A stretch of DNA of 37,250 nt from Kiritimatiellia bacterium. GTDB taxonomy: Bacteria > Verrucomicrobiota > Kiritimatiellia > RFP12 > JAAYNR01. Location: assembly GCA_044343885.1 (NCBI GenBank), contig JBIJDW010000002.1, positions 1-37,250 of the forward strand, read 5' to 3'. Below the pieces are notes generated by a model. It saw nothing but the letters and a program-made list of their open reading frames with translations, had not been told where the DNA came from and searched no databases. Positions 4,443-37,005 of the stretch are shown one piece after another. Each line of letters starts with the position of its first letter. Within the stretch, counting starts at the first letter, position 1. The translations under genes and the position numbers were made by a program.

Positions 4443-5234
4443 TCAAACAAACAGCGGCAGCAGGTGATCACGGACGCGGCTTTGAATGAGACCGTTGGAA
4501 GCGAGGACGGCCATGCGGTAGGAGCCGTATTCGCGGAGAATTTCGCACATCCCGCCTGCCCGCTCGACGATCAACCCCGCCGCCGCGATGTCCCAGATGT
4601 AGATGCCCGGTTCGAAATAGGCTTCGGCCTTGCCGGAGGCGACGAGGCACATGTCGAGCGCAGCGGAGCCGGTTATGCGTGCCCGCTGGGCCAATGCGGC
4701 GACGGCGCGCATGAATTGGAAGGAGTGTTCACCGAGATCGGCCTTGTCGGCCCCGGTATGAATGAGCGACATCTGCGGCTCGGAGATCGTTGACACGCGC
4801 AGAACCGAGCCATTGCACAGGGCCGGGCCGTCGGAGGTGGCTTCGAAGAGCCATCCGAACTCAGGGGCGAAGACCGCGCCCGCCACGGAACGGCCATTCA
4901 CTTGCGCGGCGACCGAGCAGCACCACCAAGGCGAGCCGTGGAAGAAATTGACCGTGCCATCAATCGGATCAATCACCCAGCGCACGGGTGCGTCGGGCAG
5001 GGGTTGATCGCAGGTCTCCTCGCCGAGAATGGGATAGTCGGGGCATGCGGCGAGAATCGCGGCCGTCGCCACCTCCTGCGCTTCGACATCCAGGCGGTGT
5101 TTCACATCGCTTCGCGTCAGCGAGTCGGCCTCGCCCCGGCGGTTGAGATTTGCCAGCACGTGCTCGCCCGCCGCACGGGCCGCCTGGCGGGCGATGGCAA
5201 GAAGAGCCGATGGCGTGGGTGTTTGGATTGGCAT
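4443..5234 (-). CDS. Inositol monophosphatase family protein (SuhB/CysQ/HisN-like)
   Basis: 263-aa ORF carrying family motifs: ILGEE (metal site), WVIDPIDGTVNFFHG and WDIAAAGLIVERAGG. Confidence 0.85.
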   Translation of the reverse strand: MPIQTPTPSALLAIARQAARAAGEHVLANLNRRGEADSLTRSDVKHRLDVEAQEVATAAILAACPDYPILGEETCDQPLPDAPVRWVIDPIDGTVNFFHGSPWWCCSVAAQVNGRSVAGAVFAPEFGWLFEATSDGPALCNGSVLRVSTISEPQMSLIHTGADKADLGEHSFQFMRAVAALAQRARITGSAALDMCLVASGKAEAYFEPGIYIWDIAAAGLIVERAGGMCEILREYGSYRMAVLASNGLIQSRVRDHLLPLFV

Positions 5235-5256: not shown

Positions 5257-8200
5257 TCACGCAGGATCGGTGACCGGTGTCTGATGAGCCATGAGCGAGT
5301 GTGGAACGAGGGTGTTGCTTTGGCGGATCGTGTCGAAGATGGCTTCGGCGAGGATTGGAAAGGCGGTGTTTTGGAACGCCGGGTCGTCCATGTAGCGGGT
5401 GACGATCCTGTCGTTTTCGCTGAGGCGTTGAATCATGAGTGATTCGATAAGCGGCTTGATGCCCAGCAGGAACTTGTCGAGCGGGTTCGCTATGGCCGTC
5501 TGGATCACCTGCTGGGTGGCTGACGCCTTCTCGCGGATCTGCTCGAAGAACAAGCGGTCTTCCTCGGTAAAACTCGTGCCAAAGCGGTCGTTGAGCACTT
5601 TGACGATCTCGGACAAGGGCGCTTTCTCCTCCTTGGCTTTTCCGGTGCCCACGTCCGTCGGGCTTTTCACGCCTTGCGGATCGCCTTCACGGATTTCGAT
5701 CTCGCCTGAGGAAATCCGCTGCAAGCGGTAGTACTGAAGCCCGACCTCGTCGCCGATCTTCACCCTTTCTGTATCGCGGTCGAGGGGGAGATGTGGCAGC
5801 AGATACCGCCCGAAGCTGTAGAGCATCTCCAGGTCGGGATCGCCATAAGAAATAATCTGGCTCATGAAGGAGTAGATGTTGACGTACCCGCTCAGCTTTT
5901 CGCGGAACTCACTACGCTTGGCCTCGTCATTCATCGCCTTGAATCGGTCGACCGCGGGCTGAAGGTGCAACTGCATGCCGGCATGATCCTGCGCGCTCTG
6001 GCGGGCTACGGGCTTGTAGAAGACGCGTGCGAACGCCTCGACCTCGCTCTGGTAGTAGACCTGCGCGGCATCGAGGTCATGCTTGAGCTTTTCCAACTGC
6101 TGCGGGTCTGAACCTTCCTGAAGGCTTGTCGCGTCGTAGTAGGGCTTGAAGGCTTTGTAGACGTCCTCGGCTTTGTTGACGAAATCCAAGATAAACGGGT
6201 TCTCCTTGCCGGGAATCTTACGGTTGAGCCGAGACAGGGTCTGCACCGCCTGTACGCCGTCGAGCCGCTTGTCCACATACATGGCGCAGAGCAGAGGCTG
6301 GTCGAAGCCCGTCTGGTATTTGTTGGCCACGAGCAACACCTGATAATCCGGCGAGGCGAACCGCTCCGGAATCTGCTTCTCGCTGATGGACTTACCGCTC
6401 ACGCAGTCGGTGTTCATACCCGGTTCGGTGAATTCCTCGCCCGGAAGCTTCGGATCTTTGACCGTGCCGCTGAAGGCGACCAGCGGGCGGATGTCGGTGA
6501 TCTTATTGTCGGCGAGGTAGCGCTCGAAAGCACGCATGTAGCGCACGGCGTGGAGACGGGAAGAGGTGACTACCATGGCTTTGGCCCGTCCGCCGAGCTG
6601 GCCCAACACTTTATGGCGGAAGTGCTCCACCATCACCTCAGTCTTCTGTTCAATATTGTGCGGGTGCAGACTCATGAATTTGGCCAGCGCTCTCGCCGCC
6701 TTTTTCTTCGGGAGGTTCGGATCATCCTCGATGGCCTTGACCAGTCGGTAATAGGTGGCATAGGTGGTATAGTTTTTTACTACATCAAGGATGAAGCCCT
6801 CGTCGATGGCCTGCCGCATGGAGTAGAGATGAAACGCCGCTGGCTTTCCATCGTCACCCGTGCGGCCGAACAGCTCCAGCGTCTTGCCCTTAGGGGTGGC
6901 GGTGAAGGCGAAAAAGCTCAGGTTCGGCTGCCGCCCGCGCGACTGCATGACCTGGTTCAGGCGGTCTTCCCAGTCCGGATCTTCCTCGACGTTCTCCGCG
7001 TTTGCGGTTGTGCCGAGAATGGACTTCAGCTCGCGCGCCGTCTCGCCGGTCTGACTGGAGTGCGCCTCGTCGACGATGACAGCATACCTGCGCTTGGCGA
7101 TTTCGGCCTCCCATTTCGCGGCGTCGGCCTTCTGCTCGGCGGTCGCCGCCTCCTGACTCTCCGCGCCGGCGGCGTGGAGCAGGCCGCGCAGGACAAACGG
7201 AAACTTCTGCAGGGTCGTGATGACGATCTTAGTGCCGTCGATCAGCGCGGCGGCGAGCTGCTTGGAGTCCTGATCGATGGCTTTGACCACGCCCTGCGCG
7301 TGTTCAATCTGGTAAATCGCGTCCTGTAACTGCCGGTCAAGCACCTGGCGGTCGGTGATGACCACCACGCAGTCGAAGACCTTGGCGTCCTGCTCGTCGT
7401 GCAGGCTGGCGAGCCGGTGCGAGAGCCAGGAGATGCTGTTGGTCTTGCCGCTGCCGGCCGAGTGCTGAATGAGGTAGTTGCGTCCGGGACCTTCCTCGCG
7501 GGACGCCAAAACCAGTTTGCGGACCGAGTCGAGCTGGTGGTATCGAGGGAAGATCATCGTCTCTTTTGTCACGACGCGCTGCCCGCCGCGGCCGTCGTCC
7601 ACCTTCTCATCCTTCTTCTCGATAAACATGAAGTGGCCGAGGATGTCGAGGAAGCTCTCGAACTGGAGCACATCCTCCCAGAAATAGCCGGTGCGGTATC
7701 CGGAGTCGTGCTGCGGGTTGCCGGAGCCACAGATGATCTTGCCGGGGTTGCTGCCACGGTTGAACGGCAGGAAATGGGTCTTCTCGCCAGCCAGACGGGT
7801 GGCCATGTGGACCTCTTCTGAATCGGCGGCGAAATGCACCAGCGCCCGCTTCTTGAACTCGAAAAGCGGCGCGCGGGGGTCGCGGTCCTGCCTGAACTGG
7901 CGCACGGCGTGGCGCCAGTTCTGGCCCGTGCCGGGATTCTTCAGCTCGATGGTGGCGACAGGCAGGCCGTTCACCGCGAGCGCCATGTCCAGCGTGCGGT
8001 TGTCGGCGGGATGGCAGGGCACCTGCCGGGTGACGGTGAGGCGGTTTTTGCTGAAGAGGGCGATGGTATCGAAATTCGCGCCGTGGGCGGGTTTGAAGTA
8101 GGCGACGCGGAAGAGCTTGCCGTAAAACTTGAAGCCGTGCCGCAGCACGTGGAGCGCGCCCTTGGCGTCCAGTTCCTTGACCAGAGTGGTCAGCAGCAAC

Positions 8201-8403
8201 GCCTCCAGCCCGGCCGCGTGCAGCGTCCGCATCTCGGCCCAGAGCTTGGGCTGGGTGTCAGCAATAAACGCGAATACCTGCGCCGGGAAAAGCGCCCGTT
8301 CCTTGTCCCACTCCGCGTTGCTGCCTGACTTCCAGCCGCCGTGCGTCAGCAGGATTTCCTCAACGTAGGTCTCAAAGGCGTGTTCGGTGGTTTGGGATGA
8401 CAT
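5257..8403 (-). CDS. hsdR: Type I restriction enzyme, R (endonuclease/translocase) subunit
   Basis: 1048-aa ORF. The N-terminal PD-(D/E)xK region is DMALAVNGLPVATIELKNP. SF2 motif I is LIQHSAGSGKTNS and motif II is VIVDEAHSSQ (DEAH). It has a long helical C-terminal domain and shares a locus with hsdM and hsdS. Confidence 0.9.
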   Translation of the reverse strand: MSSQTTEHAFETYVEEILLTHGGWKSGSNAEWDKERALFPAQVFAFIADTQPKLWAEMRTLHAAGLEALLLTTLVKELDAKGALHVLRHGFKFYGKLFRVAYFKPAHGANFDTIALFSKNRLTVTRQVPCHPADNRTLDMALAVNGLPVATIELKNPGTGQNWRHAVRQFRQDRDPRAPLFEFKKRALVHFAADSEEVHMATRLAGEKTHFLPFNRGSNPGKIICGSGNPQHDSGYRTGYFWEDVLQFESFLDILGHFMFIEKKDEKVDDGRGGQRVVTKETMIFPRYHQLDSVRKLVLASREEGPGRNYLIQHSAGSGKTNSISWLSHRLASLHDEQDAKVFDCVVVITDRQVLDRQLQDAIYQIEHAQGVVKAIDQDSKQLAAALIDGTKIVITTLQKFPFVLRGLLHAAGAESQEAATAEQKADAAKWEAEIAKRRYAVIVDEAHSSQTGETARELKSILGTTANAENVEEDPDWEDRLNQVMQSRGRQPNLSFFAFTATPKGKTLELFGRTGDDGKPAAFHLYSMRQAIDEGFILDVVKNYTTYATYYRLVKAIEDDPNLPKKKAARALAKFMSLHPHNIEQKTEVMVEHFRHKVLGQLGGRAKAMVVTSSRLHAVRYMRAFERYLADNKITDIRPLVAFSGTVKDPKLPGEEFTEPGMNTDCVSGKSISEKQIPERFASPDYQVLLVANKYQTGFDQPLLCAMYVDKRLDGVQAVQTLSRLNRKIPGKENPFILDFVNKAEDVYKAFKPYYDATSLQEGSDPQQLEKLKHDLDAAQVYYQSEVEAFARVFYKPVARQSAQDHAGMQLHLQPAVDRFKAMNDEAKRSEFREKLSGYVNIYSFMSQIISYGDPDLEMLYSFGRYLLPHLPLDRDTERVKIGDEVGLQYYRLQRISSGEIEIREGDPQGVKSPTDVGTGKAKEEKAPLSEIVKVLNDRFGTSFTEEDRLFFEQIREKASATQQVIQTAIANPLDKFLLGIKPLIESLMIQRLSENDRIVTRYMDDPAFQNTAFPILAEAIFDTIRQSNTLVPHSLMAHQTPVTDPA
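8227..8403. repeat. Direct repeat copy A (5' end of intact hsdR), paired with 10412-10591
   Basis: My hand alignment to 10412-10591 gives about 90 percent identity, roughly 15 mismatches plus one 3-nt indel. Both copies are in the same orientation. Confidence 0.85.
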
Positions 8404-8406
8404 GGT

Positions 8407-10272
8407 TCAGAGTAGGTGGTTATTTTGGAAGTTTTCGTTCAAAACGTAACCTCTGGCATCGGCACTTGGTCTCATTATCAACTCGCCCTTCTCCAGTTTG
8501 TTAAAGGCATATCGCACCTTACGGTAAAAGGCGTCAAATTCTTTGATGTCCTGTAAAGCACCCTTTTCCTCGAACCATAGAGAGAAAGCCGCTGTTTTTG
8601 CCGTGACCGCCTTGTTCTTAGAGTAATGCCCATGGCGGTAGAGAACGTTCAGGCATCTACGTGATAGAAGTTCGAGTGTGGTTAGCAGCGTATCTCCATA
8701 AAGCGCTTGAAGTTCTTCCCGATAACCGTCCTGCATGAGAATTCGGTCCGCCAAAAAGACAGAATGGACACTCGTGCTTCGGTTGTGTTTGAAGATCAGA
8801 CCTGCCCGCTCAAGCGACAACAGTTGCTCGAAATGATTGTTGTCTGGCGTGAGCATGATGGTGTAGAGGTGCGAACGATTAGCCCGTTCCGATTTGATCA
8901 AATAACTCAGAACGAATCGTTGTTCATCAGTAAGGGCTCCGCCCAACTTCTCCTCAATGTGCGCATCAAAACTTGCCAAATGATGTTTCATGCTGTCGCC
9001 GTAGAGAGGCCCCGCATTCACGAAGAGACAGACTTCGTCTGAGTAGAAGCGATAAGTCGGCAAATCGATCTTGTTTTCTAGGCAAAGATTGACCAGTGTG
9101 GCCATGCCGATGCCCTTGCCTTCCCACTTACGATACACGCGAAGCACATCGGCCAGTTTGGGATTGCGAGCTTTTGCCTCCGGTATGATTCGGCGCAGAG
9201 GAGCCGGATCGTCTGGAAAATCGATAAGCAGGTTCTTGCGGAAACAGCCGGGGTTCCGAATGGAGATATATCGGCCGGGCTTAATGGAAATAATCGCTTG
9301 TTTGTTAATCGAATAGTCGCGGTGAGCGAGCGCATTGTTGACGGTTTCCCGAAGCACTTCTTCAGGATATTGGGGTGTTTCAATACCCCCATCTTTCGCC
9401 GAAACGCCCACTTGGATGTTTCGCAGTATGTAGGTGAGACTGCTCTGCATGAGCGGCAGAATGTTGCCAATGTAGTCCTGCTTGTCCTGCGCAACAACCT
9501 GAGGGATATCTACGTACCCGTGGACATGGCACCGGAACCCCAGACGGTCTTCAGGATGACGTCCGCACACCAACAGGCCGAGCGTGGTCGCCTTTCCGTC
9601 CCTTACAAAGCACTTGCGCTCAAGAAAACTTCGGGCGGCTGGCAGATCGGCTTTTATGGTCTCAACTTTGGTCGGGCGGTTCAGTTGCTGGATGTAATCA
9701 TTGAGAGGATCGAGATCGAGATCATCCATCGTCGTATCATCGATCGTCTGGGTCTCGCGTGCATGAGACATCTCTTCGCGATATTCTTCCTGGCTTTCGA
9801 TTTCGGTGTCGCTTAGCTTGTGGTCGCCGGTCAATTGACGTTTCCACGCCTTACCCTCGTAAAAAACATACTTCTGGTCTGCGGGGAGTTCATCGACATA
9901 AATAACGGCTACCTGCCCTTGCTTGAAGGGGAGTATCTTCATTTGAGGAAATGACTCGCGGAGGTCGAGCGGATTGCCGACACGGTCCGTGAAGATGCGG
10001 GCAAACTCTTTCAGCTTCGCTTCGGCATCCTCACGCCAACCGCTGAAAATCCAACGCCGGTCAGGCCCCTGCCCCTCCTCTTTGAAACCGAGCAAAAGGA
10101 TGCCGCCACGCGTGTTTAAGAACGCATTCACGCTCTTGTACCGTTCTCGCCAAGACGCGCCGTCTCCTGGAACGGGCTTGATTTCAAGCGCGTCCGTTTC
10201 CAAAGGCTCGTATCGGGTCTCGGCTATCAGAACAGTCAAACGCGCCAGAATGTTGTCAACTGGGTCAGGCAT
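8407..10272 (-). CDS. AlbA_2/Schlafen-like plus HATPase_c_4 (RecG-like C-terminal) putative DNA-binding/ATP-binding protein
   Basis: 621-aa ORF. The N-terminal segment is typical of AlbA_2 (ETDALEIKPVP, NAFLNTRGGILLLGFKEEG, YEGKAWKRQ). The central motif VNNALAHRDYS is typical of HATPase_c_4. The C-terminus looks wHTH-like. The gene is visibly AT-richer than hsdR and ends 3 nt before the hsdR ATG. Confidence 0.65.
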   Translation of the reverse strand: MPDPVDNILARLTVLIAETRYEPLETDALEIKPVPGDGASWRERYKSVNAFLNTRGGILLLGFKEEGQGPDRRWIFSGWREDAEAKLKEFARIFTDRVGNPLDLRESFPQMKILPFKQGQVAVIYVDELPADQKYVFYEGKAWKRQLTGDHKLSDTEIESQEEYREEMSHARETQTIDDTTMDDLDLDPLNDYIQQLNRPTKVETIKADLPAARSFLERKCFVRDGKATTLGLLVCGRHPEDRLGFRCHVHGYVDIPQVVAQDKQDYIGNILPLMQSSLTYILRNIQVGVSAKDGGIETPQYPEEVLRETVNNALAHRDYSINKQAIISIKPGRYISIRNPGCFRKNLLIDFPDDPAPLRRIIPEAKARNPKLADVLRVYRKWEGKGIGMATLVNLCLENKIDLPTYRFYSDEVCLFVNAGPLYGDSMKHHLASFDAHIEEKLGGALTDEQRFVLSYLIKSERANRSHLYTIMLTPDNNHFEQLLSLERAGLIFKHNRSTSVHSVFLADRILMQDGYREELQALYGDTLLTTLELLSRRCLNVLYRHGHYSKNKAVTAKTAAFSLWFEEKGALQDIKEFDAFYRKVRYAFNKLEKGELIMRPSADARGYVLNENFQNNHLL

Positions 10273-10285
10273 TGGCCTATTGCTC

Positions 10286-10591
10286 CTACAGTGCTGCAGT
10301 GACGTTAATCTTGCCCGTAACGGCTGCGGTAATCAAGGCTATTCGGTCTTCCTGCAACCGCTCCACCGCCTCCTTCCCCACCAGCGCGGCCAGCTTGTGG
10401 CCATGCTGGCCCCGCATTTCGGTCCAGATCTTCGGCTGGGTGTCAGCAATAAACGCGAACACCTGCGCCGGGAAGAGCGCCCGTTCCTTGTCCCAATCCG
10501 CGTTGCTGCCTGACTTCCAGCCGCCGCGCGTCAGCAGGATTTCCTCAACGTAGGTTTCGAAGTCGTCTTCGGTGGTTTGGCTGTAACTCAT
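10286..10591 (-). pseudogene. Chimeric remnant: hsdR 5' fragment fused in frame to an hsdS 3' fragment
   Basis: The first ~58 aa (MSYSQTTEDDFETYVEEILLTRGGWKSGSNADWDKERALFPAQVFAFIADTQPKIWTEMR) parallel the hsdR N-terminus (MSSQTTEHAFETYVEEILLTHGGWKSGSNAEWDKERALFPAQVFAFIADTQPKLWAEMR). The last ~35 aa (LAALVGKEAVERLQEDRIALITAAVTGKINV) parallel the hsdS C-terminus (LDALVGKVEEAVERLQEYRTALITAAVTGKIDV). At 101 aa it cannot function as either subunit. Confidence 0.8.
10412..10591. repeat. Direct repeat copy B (hsdR-5'-like), paired with 8227-8403
   Basis: See copy A. Together the two copies bracket the AlbA_2-like gene and the hsdS-like fragment. Confidence 0.85.
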
Positions 10592-11334
10592 GGCACGGTA
10601 CCTAACAATTGCTGGACAACCTGCCGAATCGCGAAGCAGTATTCAGGAAGCCAGCCGTTCTCGGCCGTCGATGTCCTTGCCACGATCCGCTCGGCGTCGG
10701 CCCGGTTCTCAATACCTTCTATGAACGCGGTGATGGCCTGTGCCCGCCACCCTGTCAAGACCTCATGTCCGAGGTTTAGAACGGCGACTGTATCAACAGC
10801 GGCTTGATCGCTAGCAGTGGCAGGACTGATGCCCCCGCTGAGATCAAAAGCGAAGCGATTCTCGCAATTCTTGTCCGTGGGGAGGATTGGCACAGCGTCA
10901 TTTCCACGGTACGCCGCGCCAAACAGGGAGTTTTTCGTGACCCTTTTCCCGGCCCCGCTGACGAGCAAAGCCGCCACGATGTTCCGGTGATCCAAGTCTT
11001 CGCCCACATCCACACTGTATATCTTCCCTGCCGCTTCCATCTCTTGTCTGCACACAGACTGCGGTTTCAAGTGCTCATTGTGGGCGGAGAACTTCAGCTT
11101 GGCCTGCGGGTCACTCAGCGTGCCAAGACGTGAATCAATACCAGCCCCCGTGTAGGCACAAAGACCGCATTGTTCCGCTGTCAGTTCATTGCAGAGTTGC
11201 CTCCCACGGCTGCCGCCATGCGGACTGGCTGTGGAGGCGAAGGTCTTGTAGTCGAAACCATGGCCAACGTCTGCCTGTGCCGCCATGTAATCGCGTATGG
11301 AAGGCGGCGGCTCTGATTTTGCAGTCCATCTCAT
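10588..11334 (-). CDS. PtuB-like HNH-family protein (TIGR02646-like), partner of the upstream ATPase
   Basis: 248-aa ORF. It has a CxxC knuckle (QCGLCAYTG) followed by HNEHLKPQS, an (D/E)H-x-x-P HNH core. A downstream Asn lies in HRNIVAAL. I could not find the second Cys pair usual in HNH zinc fingers. ATGA overlaps occur with the ATPase stop (11331-11334) and with the remnant start (10588-10591). Confidence 0.4.
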   Translation of the reverse strand: MRWTAKSEPPPSIRDYMAAQADVGHGFDYKTFASTASPHGGSRGRQLCNELTAEQCGLCAYTGAGIDSRLGTLSDPQAKLKFSAHNEHLKPQSVCRQEMEAAGKIYSVDVGEDLDHRNIVAALLVSGAGKRVTKNSLFGAAYRGNDAVPILPTDKNCENRFAFDLSGGISPATASDQAAVDTVAVLNLGHEVLTGWRAQAITAFIEGIENRADAERIVARTSTAENGWLPEYCFAIRQVVQQLLGTVP

Positions 11335-12644
11335 TTGCCGAGCACCTTGATTCGTTCAACCATGGACACCGCCCGCTGAAGTTCATCGCTATTCCCGATT
11401 TCTCCGCGCAACAGGTGTGTCTCACATTCGGCCTCCGCAAGGTTGCGATCGTTAATCAGTTGAAATATTTTAGCCAACCGAGCCTTAACCTGCGCATTGC
11501 ACTTACTTCCACCCATCAGCACTTCCACCACCCAGTTAGAGTCCATGCCGAACGACAACGCGGGTTGAGAGAACACATTGTTGTGCATCATACGGATTTC
11601 ATCCGGCTGGAGTTCGCCGATCAACTGAGGCGAGTGCGAGGTGCAAACAAACTGAATGGCTGGGAATGTGCCCTTCAAATCCGTTGCGATCCGGCGTTGC
11701 CAGATCGGATGGAGATGCACATCCACCTCATCGATCAGCACCAAGCCCGGCGTCAGTTTCAGCACTCGCGGCACTGGATCATCCTCCGCGCCCAACTCAT
11801 CCGGCGGCAGCAGATAGGCATTCTGTGTCACTGCCTTGATGGCCAGGTCCGCGATCAGTGCCAGCATCATCCTCTGCCCGGCGCTCAGATTGTCAAACGG
11901 CTGTGCGTTGCCGCAGATTGACAGGACAATTTGGTCACGGTCTGTGTCGAACCACACGTCATCCGCATCCGGCACGCAGCGGAGCACGGCCCGCCGCACG
12001 ACCTCGAATCCCGGACGCCACTTTCCGCCCCGGTTCCCGCGCTCGGTCGTTTCACGGCTGAACCATTTGTGCAGCTCGGTAAAACGAATGCGTTCGTTGA
12101 AGCAATCGTAGAATGCCGCCCAGCGCATGGCTGGACTATTAGCCTTTGACTTGGGCACCCGCTCGTTGGAGGGCAGCCATGCCCGCCCGGCTCCGTAATA
12201 GGCTAGCACGGGGCAGAGCACATTTTCACCGGCACTGTCCTTTGCATATACCCCTTTGATGATCTGCCGAGCATCCTCGGCATCAGCGTTGGTCGTGTTT
12301 CTCTGATCCGCGCGAATCTGTCGCGTCCAGACAACCTGATCCCTCTCGGCAATGCGCCCGGTCGCCTGGACGATCACGGGACGCCGTTCCTGAAACTGGA
12401 TCCGGTCGCCCTTGGTTAGCGGCTCAAGCCGAATATCGGCAGGGAAAATTTTGCGTCCGCTATTAATCAGGATCGAGTCGGGCGGATCCAATAGCCAGAC
12501 ACCCGCGGCCACCGCCAGCGCATCGAGCACCGTCGTTTTGCCCGCGCCATTCTCGCCGACCAACAAAGTGAATTGCGGGTGCAGGTCAATATCCTGAGCC
12601 GCGAACTTCTTGAAGTTCGCAATGTGTAGGTTATCAAGTCTCAT
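11331..12644 (-). CDS. PtuA-like ABC/SMC-type ATPase (AAA_15/AAA_21 class)
   Basis: The N-terminus is MRLDNLHIANFKKF. It carries Walker A LLVGENGAGKTT, the ABC signature LSAGQRMMLAL, Walker B LVLIDEVDVHLHP and H-loop TSHSP. I prefer the ATG at 12644, which has AAGGAG at 12651-12656, over the TTG at 12683 used by the ORF track. Confidence 0.6.
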   Translation of the reverse strand: MRLDNLHIANFKKFAAQDIDLHPQFTLLVGENGAGKTTVLDALAVAAGVWLLDPPDSILINSGRKIFPADIRLEPLTKGDRIQFQERRPVIVQATGRIAERDQVVWTRQIRADQRNTTNADAEDARQIIKGVYAKDSAGENVLCPVLAYYGAGRAWLPSNERVPKSKANSPAMRWAAFYDCFNERIRFTELHKWFSRETTERGNRGGKWRPGFEVVRRAVLRCVPDADDVWFDTDRDQIVLSICGNAQPFDNLSAGQRMMLALIADLAIKAVTQNAYLLPPDELGAEDDPVPRVLKLTPGLVLIDEVDVHLHPIWQRRIATDLKGTFPAIQFVCTSHSPQLIGELQPDEIRMMHNNVFSQPALSFGMDSNWVVEVLMGGSKCNAQVKARLAKIFQLINDRNLAEAECETHLLRGEIGNSDELQRAVSMVERIKVLGK

Positions 12645-12655
12645 TAAAGGCTCCT

Positions 12656-14071
12656 TTACATCAAGTGTGCCAGTGTATCGCAAGACGATCCACCGTACAC
12701 GTCAATTTTGCCGGTGACGGCGGCGGTGATGAGGGCGGTGCGGTATTCCTGCAACCGCTCCACCGCCTCCTCTACCTTTCCCACCAGCGCGTCCAGCTTC
12801 GCCGTCTCCTTGTCCAGATACGCGGCGATAGCGGCTTGTTCGGGGAGGGGTGGAAGACCGATTTTGATCGAGCCGACGGTATCGGTGTTCAGGTTTAGTT
12901 GAGTTCCCATCTTGCCAAGCCCCTTGTAGGGTTCGCCGCTGGCGAAGATGTAAAACAAAAACTTCGTGTCTTCCTTCCAGCTTGGAAAATAGACGAACCC
13001 GTCGTGGATGCAGCACTTGATTGTAGTGATGCATGGTTTGCCGACGGTGCCTGCGATGCTTAGAAAAAGCGCACCGGGCTTGAGTTTCACGCTCAAGGAG
13101 CTTCCGAGAGGCGACATTCGCTGTTCCGTTTTCTCCAAGAACGGCCCCGCAGCCGTCACATCTGCGATTCTGACCCAAGCATACTTGCCTTCGTCATCGA
13201 AGAACTTCTCATCGTCGATTGGCCGAGGAGATGCACCACGCTTCACGGGTGACTCCCACTTGATGGCTTTAACCTCCCAATGCTTCGGGATGTCGCCGAG
13301 CCAGTCGATGCCGGAGGGTTTGAGGGGTGGGTTGGCGGGGAGCCCCGCCTTCGCGGCAGCTTCGGCGGGCAGGCCCCGAGTCACGGTTCGCGAAATCAGC
13401 GCGGTGCGCTTCTCCTTCAACCGCTCGATCAACTCGCGCTTCTTCGCCACCAACCGATCCACCCGCCCCGTCTCCCGGTCCAGAAACGCCGCGATGGCGC
13501 GTTGCTCGGCTGGGTCTGGTAGTGGAATCCACGCATCACCGATGGAGGCTTTTGGCAGGCCGTAGCGCGTGACGCCACTGGCAGCGACTTGGAACTGCTG
13601 ATTGACGGCGCATGACTGAAACGCCCGGAGCAAGTAATCGCCGATGAGCGCTTTCGGTCGGGAGCGAATGATGGCGAGATGGTAACCACACACCAAGTCG
13701 GGCGCGGTCTTTTTCACCATCGAGGGAACGGCAATGTCGCTCCATTCTTCGGAGTCTTTGGTTATGACGACATCGCCTACTCGCAGGCCGAATCGTCGGA
13801 TTTCATCCGCAGTGGCAGTCGTTTCCATCAACCCCATGTCAGGCGTGATGTGGTCGTGGTAGTAAACGTCGGTGTAGTTGCAGAGCCGCACCGGCAGTTC
13901 ATCCTCGGCAGGAACTTTGTCCACGTTGCTCACCCAACAGGTCGCAGACGTTTTCAGCCGTTTTACCTCCCAATGCTCCGGCACGTCGCCGAGCCATTCG
14001 ACGCCGCTGGGTTTGGTGCGCGGGTAGGCCGGGATTTTCATGGCTGCATGGTTCCTTGCGTCGGGCGGCAT
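12656..14071 (-). CDS. hsdS: Type I restriction-modification specificity subunit
   Basis: 471-aa ORF with two target-recognition halves. Each half is followed by the conserved HsdS helical repeat: EQRAIAAFLDRETGRVDRLVAKKRELIERLKEKRTALISRTVTRGL and EQAAIAAYLDKETAKLDALVGKVEEAVERLQEYRTALITAAVTGKIDV. An alternative ATG start at 14041 has AAGGAA upstream. Confidence 0.9.
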   Translation of the reverse strand: MPPDARNHAAMKIPAYPRTKPSGVEWLGDVPEHWEVKRLKTSATCWVSNVDKVPAEDELPVRLCNYTDVYYHDHITPDMGLMETTATADEIRRFGLRVGDVVITKDSEEWSDIAVPSMVKKTAPDLVCGYHLAIIRSRPKALIGDYLLRAFQSCAVNQQFQVAASGVTRYGLPKASIGDAWIPLPDPAEQRAIAAFLDRETGRVDRLVAKKRELIERLKEKRTALISRTVTRGLPAEAAAKAGLPANPPLKPSGIDWLGDIPKHWEVKAIKWESPVKRGASPRPIDDEKFFDDEGKYAWVRIADVTAAGPFLEKTEQRMSPLGSSLSVKLKPGALFLSIAGTVGKPCITTIKCCIHDGFVYFPSWKEDTKFLFYIFASGEPYKGLGKMGTQLNLNTDTVGSIKIGLPPLPEQAAIAAYLDKETAKLDALVGKVEEAVERLQEYRTALITAAVTGKIDVYGGSSCDTLAHLM

Positions 14072-14137
14072 GTGGAATGCCGGAAGCGTTTAAGACAGTC
14101 ACGGAACCGTTGAAGTTCGCTTGGCGCGTGGGCGGGT

Positions 14138-14416
14138 TCAGAGGCCGCCGTTCTGACGCAATAGTGTTTCATACTCCGCTCGTGACAGTGGACAGTCCAC
14201 CAAATCCAAGAATTGCTTTTTGGTCAGCTTCGCTTGCTTAGACATCAGGGCCAGCAGGCTGTCATCCAAATCCTTGCCGGAGTGGCTGGTTTTTGTCTTG
14301 GCGGTCGATTTCTTTCCATCGGTGTCGTGATAAATGAAATAGGTGTGGTCGCCATCGCGTTTTTGAAACCCCTTGGCCAACAATCCGGATTCGACGTCTT
14401 TACGGGCACGCGACAT
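14138..14416 (-). CDS. Small protein (~92 aa), weakly HicA-like, with a C-terminal extension
   Basis: The ATG at 14416 lies 1 nt after the stop of the 356-aa ORF (TGAtATG). The ORF track's longer form starts at a TTG. GLLAKGFQKRDGDHTYFIY ... TSHSGKDLDDSLLALMSKQAKL is reminiscent of the HicA/YcfA pattern (GF..v...GSHh ... h..kdl..gtl..ilkqagl). The family assignment is tentative. Confidence 0.35.
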   Translation of the reverse strand: MSRARKDVESGLLAKGFQKRDGDHTYFIYHDTDGKKSTAKTKTSHSGKDLDDSLLALMSKQAKLTKKQFLDLVDCPLSRAEYETLLRQNGGL

Positions 14417-14417
14417 A

Positions 14418-15488
14418 TCAACACCCTTCCTGTATGGCCGCACGAAGGTTTTGTTTGATGTCGAGAGCGGCAGGTGACAACGTCTCATCTGCGGCCATTG
14501 CAAATTCTTCCCAAAGAACGGCGATTTGCTCCTGCAGTTCCATTAGGAGGCGTTCCCGCGTGGCTGCAAACACATCGATGCCAAGCCGGTCATTCTGAAG
14601 GCAAAGATATTGGTTGGTTTCGTCTAGGACGGGGGCAAGGGACAACGGAGATACGAACTTCAATATCCGCCCAGCGGATGAAAACTCATGCGTGACAAAT
14701 GGAGAGAGATCCACATCCCTGATTTCCTGAACGTCTGCGATTTCCTTGGGAAGGCCGTTATCGTCTAAAATGACCGACCCTGTGACTTGGATCATATCGC
14801 GTCGGTTCTCGTAAAGCATTTGCTCTATGCACTCATCCGCATACGAGCATTCGAGAATCTTGTTCGTGACGGGGTGAATAATACTGAGTTGGTGTCGGAC
14901 AAAATTGATCTCGTTTAACCGTCCCGTTACCGTCATGGTCAAGGCTGTCGGCTCAGGTGAACAATGCTGACGGATTTCGCTTAGAAAAGGTGAAGTGGTC
15001 TGGTCAAACTCGCCGACCACATCCGATTGGTGACGGGTTTGCAGTTTCCAGTCATCGCCGGGCTTGGGAACCATGCCCCGAAACGCCTCCGCCACGCGGC
15101 TGCGCAGTTGCCGGTCAGGTAGCAATTGACGGAACGTGTCACGGTCTCGTCGGGCCAGCATGCCACTGCATCTTCGAAATAATGACGCGGTCTCGACGAT
15201 CCGTTCGTCCATCATCAACTGTCCGTTTTCTAGCTCACCAAGCGTAGCGGGCAAAGAGTAACTTCCAGATTTAGGCAACTGACAATGAAGCGCGTATTTC
15301 TGCTCGATATCGGAGGGGATTCGCGCCCGTTCACGAACTTCATGCCCTTCAACCTTCAATGCCAGTAGATGGATAACGTTCTGGGCGCTCGCAAGTATGC
15401 CCGCTAGAACAGAGGCTGGCACGGAATGAACTTCCGGTTCAGGCCACACGATGCGAAATTCGAACTCTTCTGTTTGAGTAGGGCTCAT
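14418..15488 (-). CDS. Hypothetical protein, 356 aa, no recognisable catalytic motif
   Basis: Long ATG-initiated ORF, co-oriented and wedged between hsdM and hsdS. The region is AT-richer than its flanks. I found no Walker A, HNH, PD-ExK or TM segment. Only the C-terminal ~60 aa (LGIDVFAATRERLLMELQEQIAVLWEEFA) loosely recall a HicB/UPF0150-type fold. Confidence 0.55.
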   Translation of the reverse strand: MSPTQTEEFEFRIVWPEPEVHSVPASVLAGILASAQNVIHLLALKVEGHEVRERARIPSDIEQKYALHCQLPKSGSYSLPATLGELENGQLMMDERIVETASLFRRCSGMLARRDRDTFRQLLPDRQLRSRVAEAFRGMVPKPGDDWKLQTRHQSDVVGEFDQTTSPFLSEIRQHCSPEPTALTMTVTGRLNEINFVRHQLSIIHPVTNKILECSYADECIEQMLYENRRDMIQVTGSVILDDNGLPKEIADVQEIRDVDLSPFVTHEFSSAGRILKFVSPLSLAPVLDETNQYLCLQNDRLGIDVFAATRERLLMELQEQIAVLWEEFAMAADETLSPAALDIKQNLRAAIQEGC

Positions 15489-15581
15489 GCTGCACGCTCA
15501 TTAAAAAAAGTAACCCGCCGATTTGAGCAGTGCCGGGATTTTGTCACCCCAACCTGATGCTTGGCGGGTATTGTTAAAACC

Positions 15582-15610
15582 AGTATGCTCGATTGAGGCT
15601 GAGCCGTCAA
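15582..15610 (-). promoter_or_regulatory. Candidate internal sigma-70-type promoter (TTGACG-N17-CATACT) for the 356-aa cassette
   Basis: On the reverse strand, TTGACG (15610-15605) is followed by a 17-nt spacer and CATACT (15587-15582). It sits in the 152-nt gap after the hsdM stop, about 94 nt upstream of the ATG at 15488. Confidence 0.25.
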
Positions 15611-15640
15611 CCGGAAAAAAAAGATAACTGGGCGGTGGAA

Positions 15641-17773
15641 TCACGCCGTGACCTCTTTGAGCATTTTCATGATCTCGCCTTCGAGGCGCTTGATGTCGGT
15701 CTCGATGACCTCCAGCGGGCGCGGCGGCTCGTAGCGGTAGAAGTGACGGTTGAGCGGGATTTCGTAGCCGACCTTGGTCTTGGCGGTGTCGATCCATGCG
15801 TCGGGCACATGGGGCAGCACTTCGCGTTTGAAGTAGGCATCGATGCTTTCCTTAAGCGGCACGGTCTCCGTGTCGCGCAGGTCGGCGTCCGGTTCGGGCT
15901 GGCCTTCGCGGTCGCGGCAGATTTCGGCGGTCTCGTCGCGCTCGCCGAGGGCGGCGAGCACGGCCTTGAGTTCCGGGGCGCTGAGGCGCACGTCGCTCTT
16001 CTTGCTGGCGGCCTTGAGGCTGGCGAGAAAGGCCTTGCGGTCACGATACAGCTTGGCAGCAGACATGGGCGGGACGCCCATGCCACTTTGCAGGAACGCC
16101 TTGATTTGCTCCTGACGCTGCCGGCCAGCCTCTATTTCATGTTGGCGGGCGGCGATGTCTTTCTTCGCGCTGATGGCTAGGTTTTTGAAGCCGCTCTCAT
16201 CGTCGAGCCGGGCGAGGCGTTCGGCGCTGGCCTGGAAGTTCAACCGCAGCGGGCGCTCGACGGTGATCTTGTGGTAGCCGAAGTCTTCGTTGTGGAAAAT
16301 CTTGCTGACGACGCGCTGGCGCTCAACGGGCTGGTGGGTGACGGGGTCTTCTTCGGTGAAGGTGCGAGTCTGACCGTCGCGGAATTCGCCGAATATTTTA
16401 GTGAGTTCGCCGATATGGTCGGGGTCTTTCTCCTTGTCGGAGGGGTCGCCGATACGGCGGCGCTTGTTGCCGAGGCTTTTCTCCATCTGCACCCAGAACG
16501 GGCGGGCGTCGATGAGTTGCACCTTGGCTTTACGGGCCTTTTCCTTTCGGTTGGTGAGCACCCAGAGGTAGGTGGAAATACCGGTATTGTAGAAGAGCTG
16601 CTCGGGTAGGGCGACGATGGCCTCCAGCCAGTCATTCTCAATGATCCACTGGCGAATGCTGCTCTCGCCGCCGCCGGCGTCTCCGGTGAAGAGGGGCGAG
16701 CCGTTGAAGACGATGGCGAGGCGGCTGCCGCCGTCCTGCGGGGCACGCATCTTCGAGAGCATGTGCTGGAGGAAGAGGAGCGCGCCGTCATTCACGCGGG
16801 GCGTGCCCGCGCCGAAGCGTCCACTAAAGCCGAGGGTGTCGCGCTCGCTCTCGATGTAGCGTTGTTGCTGTTTCCACTCCACGCCGAAGGGCGGATTGGC
16901 GAGCATGTAGTCGAAGGTGCATTTCTTGCCGTCAGCGGTGCGGTCGAAGCCGTCCTTGGTGAAGGTGTCGTCTCTGATAATGTTGTCCGCGTCCTCGCCC
17001 TTGATGAGCATGTCGGATTTGCAGACGGCCCAAGCCTCGTCGTTCCAGTCCTGGCCGAAGAGCTTGGGCTGGGCGTCGGCATTGAGCTTGCGGATATACT
17101 GTTCGGCGACGGACAACATGCCGCCCGTGCCGCAGGCGGGGTCGTAAATGGTTTTGACGACGTGGCTGCGGGCGAGGTCTTTCTCAGGAGCGAGGAGGAG
17201 GTTGACCATGAGTTTGATCACCTCGCGTGGAGTGAAGTGCTCCCCGGCTTCCTCGTTGGATTGTTCCGCACCGATCCGAATGAGTTCTTCGAAGACGTAG
17301 CCCATCTGGACGTTGTCCACGCGGCCGGGCGCGAGGTCGACTGCGGCGAACTTCTTGATGACCAGATAGAGCAGGTCTTTCTCGGCCATTTTGGCGATCT
17401 GCGTGCCGAAGTCGAACCGCTCCATGATGGCGCGAACATTGGGAGAGAAGCCGTTGATGTAGCTGTTGAGGTTCGGCGCGAGCTGGTTGGGGTCGTCGAG
17501 CAGGCGCGGGATGTCGAACTTTGAGAGGTTGTAGAACGGATGGCCGGTGATCGAGCAAAGCTTGTGGCGGATGATGTTCTCAGGCTTGGCCTTGATGGCA
17601 GCGTGCTCTTTCAGAACGGAGGCCTTGGTGGGGGCGAGGACGCAGTCGAAACGGCGCAGAACGGTGAGGGGGAGGATGACCTTGCGGTATTCGTTGCGCT
17701 TGTAGGGGCCGCGCAGGAGATTGCAGATGCTCCAGATGAAGGAGGCGATTTGAGAATGAGTTTCCGTTGGCAT
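15641..17773 (-). CDS. hsdM: Type I restriction-modification N6-adenine DNA methyltransferase subunit (long form, 710 aa)
   Basis: The N-terminus is HsdM_N-like (IASFIWSICNLLRGPYKRNEY). AdoMet motif I is YDPACGTGGML and catalytic motif IV is MLANPPFGVEW. A ~230-aa C-terminal extension follows the methylase core. Confidence 0.92.
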   Translation of the reverse strand: MPTETHSQIASFIWSICNLLRGPYKRNEYRKVILPLTVLRRFDCVLAPTKASVLKEHAAIKAKPENIIRHKLCSITGHPFYNLSKFDIPRLLDDPNQLAPNLNSYINGFSPNVRAIMERFDFGTQIAKMAEKDLLYLVIKKFAAVDLAPGRVDNVQMGYVFEELIRIGAEQSNEEAGEHFTPREVIKLMVNLLLAPEKDLARSHVVKTIYDPACGTGGMLSVAEQYIRKLNADAQPKLFGQDWNDEAWAVCKSDMLIKGEDADNIIRDDTFTKDGFDRTADGKKCTFDYMLANPPFGVEWKQQQRYIESERDTLGFSGRFGAGTPRVNDGALLFLQHMLSKMRAPQDGGSRLAIVFNGSPLFTGDAGGGESSIRQWIIENDWLEAIVALPEQLFYNTGISTYLWVLTNRKEKARKAKVQLIDARPFWVQMEKSLGNKRRRIGDPSDKEKDPDHIGELTKIFGEFRDGQTRTFTEEDPVTHQPVERQRVVSKIFHNEDFGYHKITVERPLRLNFQASAERLARLDDESGFKNLAISAKKDIAARQHEIEAGRQRQEQIKAFLQSGMGVPPMSAAKLYRDRKAFLASLKAASKKSDVRLSAPELKAVLAALGERDETAEICRDREGQPEPDADLRDTETVPLKESIDAYFKREVLPHVPDAWIDTAKTKVGYEIPLNRHFYRYEPPRPLEVIETDIKRLEGEIMKMLKEVTA

Positions 17774-17781
17774 GTGTCGTA

Positions 17782-17810
17782 AGTATAGGACAAACCCAGT
17801 GGCTTGTCAG
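17782..17810 (-). promoter_or_regulatory. Candidate sigma-70-type promoter for hsdM (CTGACA-N17-TATACT)
   Basis: On the reverse strand, CTGACA (17810-17805) is followed by a 17-nt spacer and TATACT (17787-17782). The -10 ends only 8 nt before the hsdM ATG (17773), which implies a leaderless or near-leaderless transcript. Confidence 0.35.
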
Positions 17811-17811
17811 C

Positions 17812-17953
17812 CAGCAATTCTAATTATGACAGCCGCTATCGGGATCCAAATCGGGATCGGGACCGAAATCGACGAGAAAGCAAGGAATTCGACCCCGATA
17901 GCGATAGCGATTTCGATTTCGACTGTACAGATGTGCCATAATTAGAATTGCTG
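17812..17953. mobile_element. MITE-like non-autonomous element (142 bp) with 17-bp perfect terminal inverted repeats and a 9-bp flanking direct repeat
   Basis: TIR-L cagcaattctaattatg (17812-17828) is the exact reverse complement of TIR-R cataattagaattgctg (17937-17953). Both ends are flanked by cttgtcagc (17803-17811 and 17954-17962). The interior carries ATCGNN hexamer runs on both strands and the complementary pair cgctatcggg/ccccgatagcg. No transposase ORF is present. Confidence 0.5.
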
Positions 17954-18007
17954 CTTGTCAGCAACCGAGTTAGAAAAAGACATCAAGGGAAGGGGAAGGA
18001 CCGAAGG

Positions 18008-35543: not shown

Positions 35544-36044
35544 TCATTCTTTTGCAAGCGTCCATAGTTCACGCACCAGAAAACTCTGAAAGTCCCGAAT
35601 CTGTTCGCGCAACCGCTCATTCGTCAGCATATCCGGACGCGGATCAACGTAATAGACCCCGTCCAGTTTGTTCAATGCAACTGTGTAGCCAAGAAAATGA
35701 TTGGTTTTGAACGTCGAATTGATTCCAAAAATGCTTTCACCGCGTTTAGCTCTCTGTACGTCGTGGAGAAAAATGGCAATCACCGGAATGTCGCGGCCTA
35801 GTAATTTCGTCAAGAGAAATTTATCGAGAAAAACTTTGTCTATACGGTCTTTGCTGGTTGTCTTAACTGAACCGACGACTTCCGCTGTGTGGATATGCTT
35901 CGTTTCGGATGCGATGATGGCTTTGTTGCGCGAGAATACAACATCAAGTTCGGATGGATTTTCGCCTTTCCACGTTTTGTTCGTCGTAACGCAGCCATTT
36001 TTCAATCGGCCAATCCTCAACCAACTCGATTCGATCTGCCGCAT
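35544..36044 (-). CDS. Putative type II restriction endonuclease (small PD-(D/E)xK-like)
   Basis: 166-aa ORF directly downstream of the methyltransferase and overlapping its 3' end by 101 nt. A possible D-x11-E-x-K motif is ELDVVFSRNKAIIASETK. The segment is AT-richer. I recognise no specific family. Confidence 0.4.
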   Translation of the reverse strand: MRQIESSWLRIGRLKNGCVTTNKTWKGENPSELDVVFSRNKAIIASETKHIHTAEVVGSVKTTSKDRIDKVFLDKFLLTKLLGRDIPVIAIFLHDVQRAKRGESIFGINSTFKTNHFLGYTVALNKLDGVYYVDPRPDMLTNERLREQIRDFQSFLVRELWTLAKE

Positions 36045-37005
36045 ACCCGCAGAATTCGATGCTAAAATCGCAGCCCTTCCACTTCCGCTTCAACTGCTCC
36101 GCCACCACCGCCGTCGTGCCAGAACCAAGAAAGGGATCAATCACCACGTCGCCGGGGCTGGATGAGGCCAAAACGATCTTCCGCAATAATTCCTCTGGTT
36201 TCTGTGTCGGGTGCGGTGTTTTCTCGTGCATTCCGTTGCAAGTCGTCGGTATTTCGAGCACATCCTTTGGCTTTGCTCCGCGCGGATGCGGATGCCAGAT
36301 GTGATCTTTGTTTGCAGCCTTGCCGTATTGGCTTGTCTCGGCTTGCGGATGCGCCGGATATTTCAGCGTGTGCTCGCCGTAAGGAATCCGCACATCATCC
36401 ACGTTGAATGTGAAATCTTGGCTCTTGCGAAAATGCAAAATGCTTTCATGCGAACGTCCCCAGTCATCGCCCAAGTTAGCCTTGTTTTTGTAATGCCACA
36501 CGATCCAGCGGCAGCCCTTGAAAAACCGTGATGCTGGCAATCGCAAGTCAGCGAGAATTTCCGAAAATCCGCAGATGTAAAGAGTCCCATCCGGTTTCAA
36601 GACCCGCGCCGCCTGCTCAATCCAACGGATTGACCATGCCACATATTCCTGTTGTGACTCAAACGTGTCCCACTCCGCCTTTTTGATGTTGTAGGGCGGA
36701 TCAGCAAACACAAGGTCAACCGAACTGGATTCCAAACCGCGCAGCCACTCGAAAGAATCACCCAACCAGATTTCACCTTGTTGGTGTAAATAAAACAAGC
36801 GGGGAGAATGGCTTTCAACCGAGGAATCAAGCGGACGCCTTTCACCTTTGTTCAATGGTTGGCCGAAGAATTCCGGGATTTCCGTATTGCGAACAAAATA
36901 AGCGGCAGAAGGCTCTTTCAATGCCAAAGAGGACGCGGAAGTCGTCACTGGGCGCGGTTGCTTTCTTAAGCGAACCTTTGGCTTGGTTGTGTCAGGGGTC
37001 TGCAT
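35944..37005 (-). CDS. Beta-class DNA methyltransferase (N6-adenine or N4-cytosine; PF01555-type)
   Basis: Catalytic motif IV VFADPPYN precedes AdoMet motif I VIDPFLGSGTT, which is the beta permutation. PTQKPEELLRKIV is also present. DPPY favours N6-adenine specificity but does not prove it. Confidence 0.85.
   Translation of the reverse strand: MQTPDTTKPKVRLRKQPRPVTTSASSLALKEPSAAYFVRNTEIPEFFGQPLNKGERRPLDSSVESHSPRLFYLHQQGEIWLGDSFEWLRGLESSSVDLVFADPPYNIKKAEWDTFESQQEYVAWSIRWIEQAARVLKPDGTLYICGFSEILADLRLPASRFFKGCRWIVWHYKNKANLGDDWGRSHESILHFRKSQDFTFNVDDVRIPYGEHTLKYPAHPQAETSQYGKAANKDHIWHPHPRGAKPKDVLEIPTTCNGMHEKTPHPTQKPEELLRKIVLASSSPGDVVIDPFLGSGTTAVVAEQLKRKWKGCDFSIEFCGYAADRIELVEDWPIEKWLRYDEQNVERRKSIRT

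Follow-up and report, generated by a model that had tools for sequence, protein, structure and literature searches.

Predicted defence cassettes at the subunit junctions of a type I restriction-modification operon from a Kiritimatiellia bacterium and their replacement in sister alleles

The first 37,250 nucleotides (nt) of contig JBIJDW010000002.1 from the Kiritimatiellia bacterium assembly GCA_044343885.1 (hereafter, the window) include a type I restriction-modification (R-M) locus in which predicted defence or toxin cassettes are located both between hsdM and hsdS (M-S junction) and between hsdS and hsdR (S-R junction) (Table 1). An earlier note on this DNA had described the locus as a scaffold for three different cargo modules that would be co-transcribed with the R-M subunits and might be functionally coupled to them. 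The scaffold part of that proposal is borne out by same-site alleles, which keep the hsd frame and carry different cargo at the S-R junction, and by the relatives of this R-M system, most of which carry cargo. We consider it probable that the locus is a chromosomal R-M operon with permissive slots at its junctions, in which self-contained cassettes are exchanged through the homology of the hsd genes and stacked by means of a linker that consists of fused hsdR and hsdS fragments.

The allele of the window (allele A, shared with loci L011, L015, and L016) has the S-R order hsdS, PtuA-PtuB, linker, Schlatpase (a protein with Schlafen/AlbA_2 and GHKL-type ATPase domains), and hsdR. Contigs with this allele from several independent metagenomes are 99.9-100% identical to the window, and the exact 356-aa protein encoded at the M-S junction is found on about 20 metagenome contigs. 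Allele B (L009-L014) occupies the same chromosomal site, between BatD and the phosphatase gene that follows hsdR, with a 375-aa ABC ATPase and a 191-aa protein in place of PtuAB, the remnant, and Schlatpase. The flanks of allele B are 97-98.6% identical to those of the window, and hsdM, the M-S gene pair, and hsdR are 97-99% identical, so the two are allelic variants that differ in their S-R cargo. The second recognition domain of hsdS (approximately 13271..12854) also differs between the alleles, and the conserved region at the 3' end of the gene (12853..12701) is 97% identical. Allele C, represented by a related metagenome-assembled genome (L018) and four metagenome contigs (L102-105), has the order hsdS, 575-aa ABC ATPase, linker, 375-aa ATPase and 191-aa protein, and hsdR; where the hsdM region is covered (L018 and L103), the M-S slot lacks the pair of the window, and in L018 it contains PDC-M32A/B. 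The phosphatase neighbour is the same in alleles B and C. Finally, allele D (L098/99), at a different chromosomal site, has HigB and M78, the linker, and Schlatpase between hsdS and hsdR. The homology breakpoints fall inside the conserved 3' region of hsdS and at the start of hsdR, and the cassette boundaries are hsd gene sequences. Cassettes would accordingly enter and replace one another through homologous recombination in the hsd sequences on either side.

The two S-R cassettes of the window are separated by a remnant composed of a copy of about 200 nt of the hsdR 5' end (direct repeat D1, 10379-10580 versus 8194-8395 in the resident hsdR, 87% identity) and a copy of about 100 nt of the hsdS 3' end (direct repeats D2/D9, 10302-10396 versus 12699-12799 in hsdS, 82-84%). 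We know of no earlier description of such an hsdR'::hsdS' remnant. The same junction sequence lies between other cassettes in allele C (L018/L102-105), where it is frameshifted, and in the chromosomally unrelated allele D (L098/L099), where it contains stop codons and lies between the HigB-M78 cassette and a Schlatpase gene of 95% identity, located 3 nt upstream of hsdR. Because the linker copies are closer to one another (81-83% identity) than to the resident hsdR 5' ends (65-80%), they suggest that a single old fusion took place and later spread. At the independent locus L023, PtuB shares an ATGA overlap with the genuine hsdR start, just as PtuB of the window does with the linker; the hsdR part of the linker therefore appears to be the relic of an hsdR that once directly followed a cassette. 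With the linker in place, the downstream slot is bordered on its left by hsdS-like sequence and the upstream slot on its right by hsdR-like sequence, so that either slot could be swapped alone, and the two S-R cassettes would have been stacked through the old fusion that now lies between them. A scan of metagenomes for the linker junction recovered allele C contigs only.

The open 101-codon frame of the window linker is probably a matter of chance, given the disruption of the other copies. The frame is nonetheless uninterrupted, and its ATGA overlap would amount to translational coupling to PtuB; production of the peptide is putative. A second kind of scar flanking stacked cassettes is seen in L062 (5920-9930), where the S-R interval contains four fragments of the hsdS 3' end and a repeated 150-aa gene but no hsdR-derived part.

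Taking the alleles and the linker together, we tentatively suggest, as a bolder version of the reading above that may well not hold, that the locus is a recombinase-free cassette array: the ends of hsdS and hsdR would serve as exchange frames, the portable linker would duplicate these frames, allow several defence cassettes to be stacked, and make the slots independently replaceable, and the whole would form a co-transferred, probably co-expressed unit of DNA restriction and several abortive modules aimed at translation. With regard to an integron-like array, no integrase was found among the open reading frames (ORFs) scanned with Pfam, which were those of the island and parts of the flanks, the ORFs at approximately 25-34 kb being left out.

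To place the locus among its relatives, we surveyed 80 loci with an HsdR 70-90% identical to that of the window. These loci span Verrucomicrobiota, Planctomycetota, Nitrospirota, Acidobacteriota, Proteobacteria, and other phyla. More than 300 nt separate hsdS from hsdR in 54 of 61 loci, and more than 300 nt lie between hsdM and hsdS in 39 of 56; across these 56-61 loci from many phyla, 93% of the cargo residues are encoded in the hsd orientation. Clustering sorted the cargo into about 80 groups; many contain a single member, and some are probably spurious ORFs. The families sampled include PDC-S15/FRG, Peptidase_M78 with DUF4411, PDC-S18, AbiD, PDC-M32A/B, DUF1016/PDC-S02, RhuM/PDC-S05, GmrSD/HEC-05/06, SoFic, dCTP deaminase, OLD/PARIS-like ATPases, PDC-S68, and further Schlatpases. 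The picture that emerges is that of a widely transferred type I R-M family whose two inter-subunit junctions would both be permissive to the insertion of self-contained cassettes of defence or toxin genes. The longest stack is not that of the window: in L041 (1564-10001), the S-R junction accommodates 8.4 kb with five or more cargo genes, among them those for two OLD/PARIS-like ABC ATPases and an M78 peptidase.

The nesting of defence cassettes in type I R-M loci is an already published phenomenon. Payne, Hughes, Fineran & Jackson (bioRxiv 10.1101/2024.01.29.577857) described "guilt-by-embedding" systems in type I R-M, BREX, DISARM, and Hma operons, found embedding in type I R-M to be frequent and 96.7% co-oriented, and left its origin open. 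The locus of the window resembles their cases in that co-oriented cassettes are interposed between hsd genes; their embedded systems include Septu, and the commonest cargo families of the surveyed relatives are the candidate defence families (PDC and HEC) of Payne et al. 2024. It differs in that the shared hsdR'::hsdS' linker and the sister alleles document the stacking and replacement of cassettes, and in that neither the pair formed by the 356-aa and HicA-like proteins nor the 621-aa Schlatpase has a specific PADLOC v2 model. Embedding in R-M operons is used to predict new immune systems, and this locus with its sister alleles provides a checkable footprint of how embedding originates. What it adds is thus the linker as a footprint of stacking, a set of natural alleles, and a candidate two-gene module that lacks annotation.

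Table 1. Features of the R-M locus and its immediate surroundings, with positions in the window
Feature	Position	Strand	Description
MITE (miniature inverted-repeat transposable element)	17812..17952	none	141-nt insertion, terminal inverted repeats AGCAATTCTAATTATGGCA / TGTCATAATTAGAATTGCT
hsdM	17773..15641	minus	710 aa, type I methyltransferase subunit; Pfam HsdM_N and N6_Mtase; PADLOC MTase_I, E=1.6e-278, full length
Conserved spacer element 3' of hsdM	15503..15610	minus	about 110 nt: promoter-like site, then hairpin, then U7 run
M-S cargo gene 1	15488..14418	minus	356 aa, family without annotation
M-S cargo gene 2	14416..14138	minus	92 aa, predicted HicA-fold protein, putative RNase toxin
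hsdS	14071..12656	minus	471 aa, two target-recognition domains; Pfam Methylase_S; PADLOC Specificity_I, E=6.8e-99, full length
PtuA (S-R cassette 1, gene 1)	12644..11331	minus	437 aa, Septu ABC-type ATPase; PADLOC PtuA
PtuB (S-R cassette 1, gene 2)	11334..10588	minus	248 aa, HNH-type nuclease; PADLOC PtuB
hsdR'::hsdS' remnant (linker)	10591..10286	minus	open 101-codon frame; hsdR 5' piece fused to hsdS 3' piece
Schlatpase (S-R cassette 2)	10272..8407	minus	621 aa, Schlafen/AlbA_2 and GHKL-type ATPase
hsdR	8403..5257	minus	1048 aa, restriction/translocase subunit; Pfam HSDR_N, SWI2_SNF2, ResIII, T1R_D3-like
Inositol-monophosphatase-family gene	4443..5234	minus	flanks hsdR downstream; Pfam Inositol_P, E=1.8e-45; ATG at 5234

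The nine minus-strand ORFs exist where the earlier note had placed them, and their identities were settled by Pfam, PADLOC, and NCBIfam scans; cargo is present at both inter-subunit junctions as it had stated, with the pair at M-S and Septu, the remnant, and the AlbA_2-type gene at S-R. HsdM contains the PF02384 (E=1.2e-55) and PF12161 (E=1.5e-23) domains. In HsdS, the PADLOC alignment spans residues 11-460 of 471, and the conserved regions are repeated internally (direct repeat D3), in keeping with the two-domain layout. HsdR combines an N-terminal nuclease domain (HSDR_N) with an SF2 translocase and matches TIGR00348 with E=1.2e-55 and 189.3 bits, under the 284.55-bit cutoff. All three hsd genes are intact and, judging from their domain content, make up a complete type I R-M system.

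The first S-R cassette is a Septu system. PtuA (PADLOC E=3.9e-108, full length; Pfam AAA_15/AAA_21) contains the Walker A GENGAGKT, signature LSAGQR, and Walker B DEVD motifs, and PtuB is matched over its full length in PADLOC (E=4.8e-33), with 30 bits against TIGR02646, under the 52-bit cutoff. The full-length PtuA and PtuB, overlapping genes, ABC ATPase motifs, and HNH-type partner are those of type I Septu, from which the copy of the window differs in its position inside an R-M operon; in the literature, Septu acts autonomously and is seldom found embedded, and it is reported to cleave tRNA-Tyr. Assignment to a retron of type I-A (Ec78/Eco7) was rejected: the retron-type PtuA equivalog of NCBIfam scores 195 bits against a 500-bit cutoff and the PtuB equivalog is likewise far below its cutoff, no reverse transcriptase is found among the neighbours, and no msr RNA was detected, the window having no Rfam match.

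The second S-R cassette encodes a protein with a Pfam SLFN_AlbA_2 domain (PF04326, 31.1 bits, above the 25.3-bit cutoff) followed by a HATPase_c_4 region (PF13749, 20.9 bits, under the 26-bit cutoff) in which the NALAHRDY motif is present; many homologues carry both domains in precomputed annotations. Its relatives comprise more than 1,000 clusters at about 60% identity, and in PADLOC it has weak partial matches to the N-terminal regions of proteins associated with prokaryotic Argonautes (pAgo). The Schlatpase supradomain has been described, a Schlafen-pAgo fusion was found to cleave tRNA, and stand-alone Schlatpase genes were noted in type I operons (bioRxiv 10.64898/2026.05.29.728809). The protein of the window shares the two-domain core with these proteins but has neither an Argonaute nor a NACHT part, with a C-terminal extension of about 200 aa instead.

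At the M-S junction, the 356-aa protein has no Pfam, NCBIfam, or PADLOC match, yet it belongs to a large family, with 2,065 representative clusters at E<=1e-3 and 350 at E<=1e-30 in an exhaustive profile search; the apparent rarity of the family (21 clusters) in a word-indexed search was an artefact. In its AlphaFold2 model (predicted local distance difference test [pLDDT] score of 86), a helical N-terminal region is followed by a central OB-fold-like beta domain and a C-terminal alpha/beta domain, and Foldseek returned partial OB-fold matches only. The 92-aa protein covers the whole Pfam HicA_toxin model in four of five family members, at 20-24 bits and under the 27-bit cutoff, and some sources label its homologues HicA/YcfA. 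Its AlphaFold2 model, built from an alignment of database homologues (pLDDT 88.8), is most similar to the HicA-type structure 1WHZ (Foldseek probability 1.00, template-modeling [TM] score 0.67, E=7e-3) and matches the HicA chain 6G26_F with a TM score of 0.69; searches of PDB sequences with small-protein profiles gave nothing useful, HicA being recovered by structural comparison only. A histidine, H24, is invariant in the family alignment and may be catalytic. The predicted HicA fold and this histidine would be in common with HicAB type II toxin-antitoxin systems, from which the pair differs in its reversed gene order relative to canonical hicAB, its 356-aa partner, and the lack of a detected HicB-like domain. 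An HicB-like antitoxin domain in the 356-aa protein was sought among 20 family members with Pfam at E<=10, by a PDB profile search, and with Foldseek, and none was found. We propose that the 356-aa protein acts as an antitoxin or a sensor partner of the HicA-like protein.

Residues 11-257 of the 356-aa protein align to PDC-M32A (hhalign, 93%, E=2.6e-7), and the two families are distantly related on this profile evidence. In the related metagenome-assembled genome at the same chromosomal site (L018, 3813-5311), PDC-M32A/B (376 + 123 aa) fill the M-S slot. The pair of the window is nevertheless not a PDC-M32 system (A of ~376 aa, B of ~123 aa): the similarity to the A component is confined to the N-terminal ~250 residues, the small protein is unrelated to PDC-M32B, and the 356-aa protein has no PADLOC hit. 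Because the N terminus of PDC-M32A is homologous to the 356-aa protein and the small partners are unrelated, the comparison suggests a shared sensor or scaffold domain combined with interchangeable effector-binding parts. A gene of ~92-101 aa follows the 356-aa family gene in five of five independent contexts, with homology verified in those that were aligned. The pair of a ~355-aa and a HicA-fold protein, with about 2,000 representative clusters and no Pfam, NCBIfam, or PADLOC model, is a candidate defence or toxin-antitoxin module.

All three cassettes are predicted from homology and modeled folds to attack RNA, and the locus may therefore layer DNA restriction with three complementary modules that would shut down translation and provide anti-phage activity. 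Whether they do so as clients of the R-M enzyme is a separate matter, and here the suggestion of functional coupling fares poorly: the earlier note itself had named cargo in non-R-M contexts as an observation that would speak against it, and each cargo type also occurs away from R-M genes. Of six relatives of the Schlatpase that were sampled (61-81% identity), five stand alone amid housekeeping genes. The 356-aa/HicA-like pair has no R-M genes nearby in L001 and L008, and in L003 it lies outside R-M genes, beside other defence genes in a mobile island with integrase and primase; in L005-7 it occupies the S-R slot of another type I locus. (In L005/L006, 5048-9935, there is an extra HsdM_N fragment upstream, hsdS is seemingly split into 109 + 301 aa, and the whole locus lies in an integrase/primase island.) Since all three cargo types occur outside R-M loci, obligate coupling is unsupported, and each cassette most likely acts by its own mechanism.

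A version of coupling that deserves separate consideration is that at least one cargo module is physically or functionally coupled to the R-M complex, held inactive, and triggered by a phage anti-restriction protein, as with PrrC in EcoprrI. PrrC, an anticodon nuclease, is hardly ever found other than embedded and is under the control of the R-M enzyme; together with PARIS, it sets a precedent, PtuA falls into the broad class of ABC ATPases to which PrrC and AriA also belong, and an RNase-type abortive effector with an ABC ATPase at the S-R position of a type I operon is common to EcoprrI and the window. Three predicted RNases would suit an abortive back-up defence, translational coupling to the hsd genes is tight, and the 3-nt gap between Schlatpase and hsdR is kept in a second locus. 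However, PADLOC detected no PrrC homology in the window, and near-exclusive embedding of the PrrC kind does not apply to this cargo, each type of which is found without an R-M neighbour, Septu being reported as autonomous. Moreover, the same R-M frame carries wholly different cargo in the sister alleles, and about 80 clusters of cargo ORFs in one R-M family run contrary to specific co-adaptation between proteins. We therefore regard this possibility as unlikely. A closer parallel to autonomous cassettes is TgvAB in VPI-2 of Vibrio cholerae (PMC11411939), a two-gene module in an active type I operon that works alone when cloned; it is a GmrSD-like type IV restriction system and a single module, whereas the window has other families and three modules. 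The natural set of alleles is suited to testing whether embedded systems are independent of, additive with, or dependent on the host R-M.

The arrangement of the junctions is relevant to whether the cassettes share a transcript with the hsd genes. The ATGA overlaps at 11331-11334 (PtuA/PtuB) and 10588-10591 (PtuB/remnant) and the 3-nt gap ahead of hsdR were read from the sequence as the earlier note had reported them; the gap ahead of PtuA does include a Shine-Dalgarno motif (AAGGAG) but measures 11 nt, not 12. The ATG of the 92-aa gene, preceded by GGAAGGG, is located 1 nt past the stop codon of the 356-aa gene, and the gap between the remnant and Schlatpase is 13 nt. Six of the eight junctions are thus <=13 nt, but the description of the junctions as short does not extend to the 152 nt between hsdM and the 356-aa gene or the 66 nt between the small gene and hsdS. 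Co-orientation, true of the island, carries little weight here because nearly every large ORF of the window shares the minus strand: this strand holds nearly all non-overlapping ORFs of >=180 aa, the plus-strand ORFs of that length all overlap longer minus-strand ORFs, and GC skew is positive nearly throughout positions 1-37250. Consensus scans of the island for promoters and terminators gave matches at chance level (6 found versus 4.8 expected; 17 versus 15.9). A promoter-like sigma-70 match, CTGACA-17-TATACT (10/12; 17782..17810, minus), ends 9 nt before the hsdM ATG, although it is a consensus match only and such matches occur at chance frequency. Given the stop/start overlaps and the lack of convincing terminators, co-transcription across most junctions is plausible, and the cassettes are probably transcribed along with the hsd genes across these close or overlapping junctions.

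The exception may be the M-S pair, which could be controlled separately by an element in the 152-nt spacer. There, a promoter-like site (TTGACG-17-CATACT, 15610..15582) precedes a hairpin (ACCCGCC...GGCGGGU, 15569..15513) and a U7 run (15509..15503), with a folding energy of -48.4 kcal/mol (z=-2.25). The element is 90.6% conserved in L018/L103 and 85% in L035, though other genes come next in those loci; it has no Rfam match, and the hairpin displays no covariation or compensatory changes among four sequences. It may be a terminator, a leader or attenuator of the M-S pair, or a small RNA gene.

These features bring us to the possibility that the junctions are merely tolerated insertion sites, a genomic sink whose modules are independently transcribed and selected and have no regulatory meaning, a hypothesis raised by Payne et al. 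themselves. It would account for the promoter-like site and terminator-like hairpin between hsdM and its cargo, for the distinct G+C content of the cargo (0.50-0.53 in Schlatpase and the M-S pair, compared with 0.58-0.64 in the hsd genes and 0.64-0.69 in the flanks), and for the uninformative co-orientation in a window where nearly all large ORFs lie on one strand. Nevertheless, at six of eight junctions the genes overlap by four bases or are only 1-13 nt apart, which leaves promoters no room, internal terminator matches are at chance level, and the 93% co-orientation of cargo coding capacity holds across loci from many phyla, which makes this explanation improbable as well.

Several observations weigh against the reading of permissive slots with exchangeable, co-expressed cassettes that we favor. 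Homologous recombination as the exchange mechanism is deduced from the colinear breakpoints, and the 5' end of hsdR is not specially conserved (identity of 0.70-0.75, compared with 0.67-0.82 elsewhere in the gene); because it is no more conserved than the rest, a specialised recombination handle at this end is ruled out. The hairpin and U7 run 3' of hsdM could end transcription, and hsdS is preceded by its 66-nt gap without an obvious Shine-Dalgarno motif. The HicA Pfam and HATPase_c_4 scores both fall under curated cutoffs, the RNA targets being assigned by homology and fold, and the 356-aa protein has no HicB signature (no UPF0150 hit at E<=10 and no PDB sequence match). Finally, the samples are small, comprising seven contexts for the Schlatpase and five for the M-S pair.

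Upstream of hsdM, the MITE-like element that the earlier note had taken to bound the island proved to be a real insertion but not a boundary. It has terminal inverted repeats of ~19 nt (27 nt at 85% in the inverted-repeat scan, I3), present in one copy in the 37-kb window and the fetched loci, and is bracketed by a 10-bp target duplication, GCTGACAAGC, at 17953-17962 and 17802-17811. The element is missing from the allele B contigs, and L009 has an intact empty site with the island retained, which rules out a boundary role; the MITE is an incidental insertion. Because the -35 hexamer of the promoter-like site of hsdM lies in a copy of the target duplication, the insertion leaves this site unchanged. 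It is very improbable that the locus is a decaying recombination wreck in which the R-M system or the cargo no longer functions, as the fused gene fragments between PtuB and Schlatpase and the inserted MITE might suggest, given that the other eight ORFs are full length with intact motifs, the allele recurs at 99.9-100% identity in several independent metagenomes, and the promoter-like site is unaffected by the MITE.

At the opposite end, the hsdR stop codon lies 22 nt from the phosphatase ATG, as had been noted, and the phosphatase gene represents a chromosomal housekeeping context. The wider flanks in the Pfam scan are housekeeping too, with genes of the Rnf complex downstream and a Bat/VWA operon upstream. 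The tRNA and Rfam scans of the window were empty, which leaves neither a tRNA-linked site of integration nor a known RNA element. Near the end of the window, in a patch of low G+C content (0.50-0.53), a minus-strand gene (35944-37005) encodes an N6_N4-type DNA methyltransferase of 353 aa, which may be part of a second R-M system or an orphan methylase.

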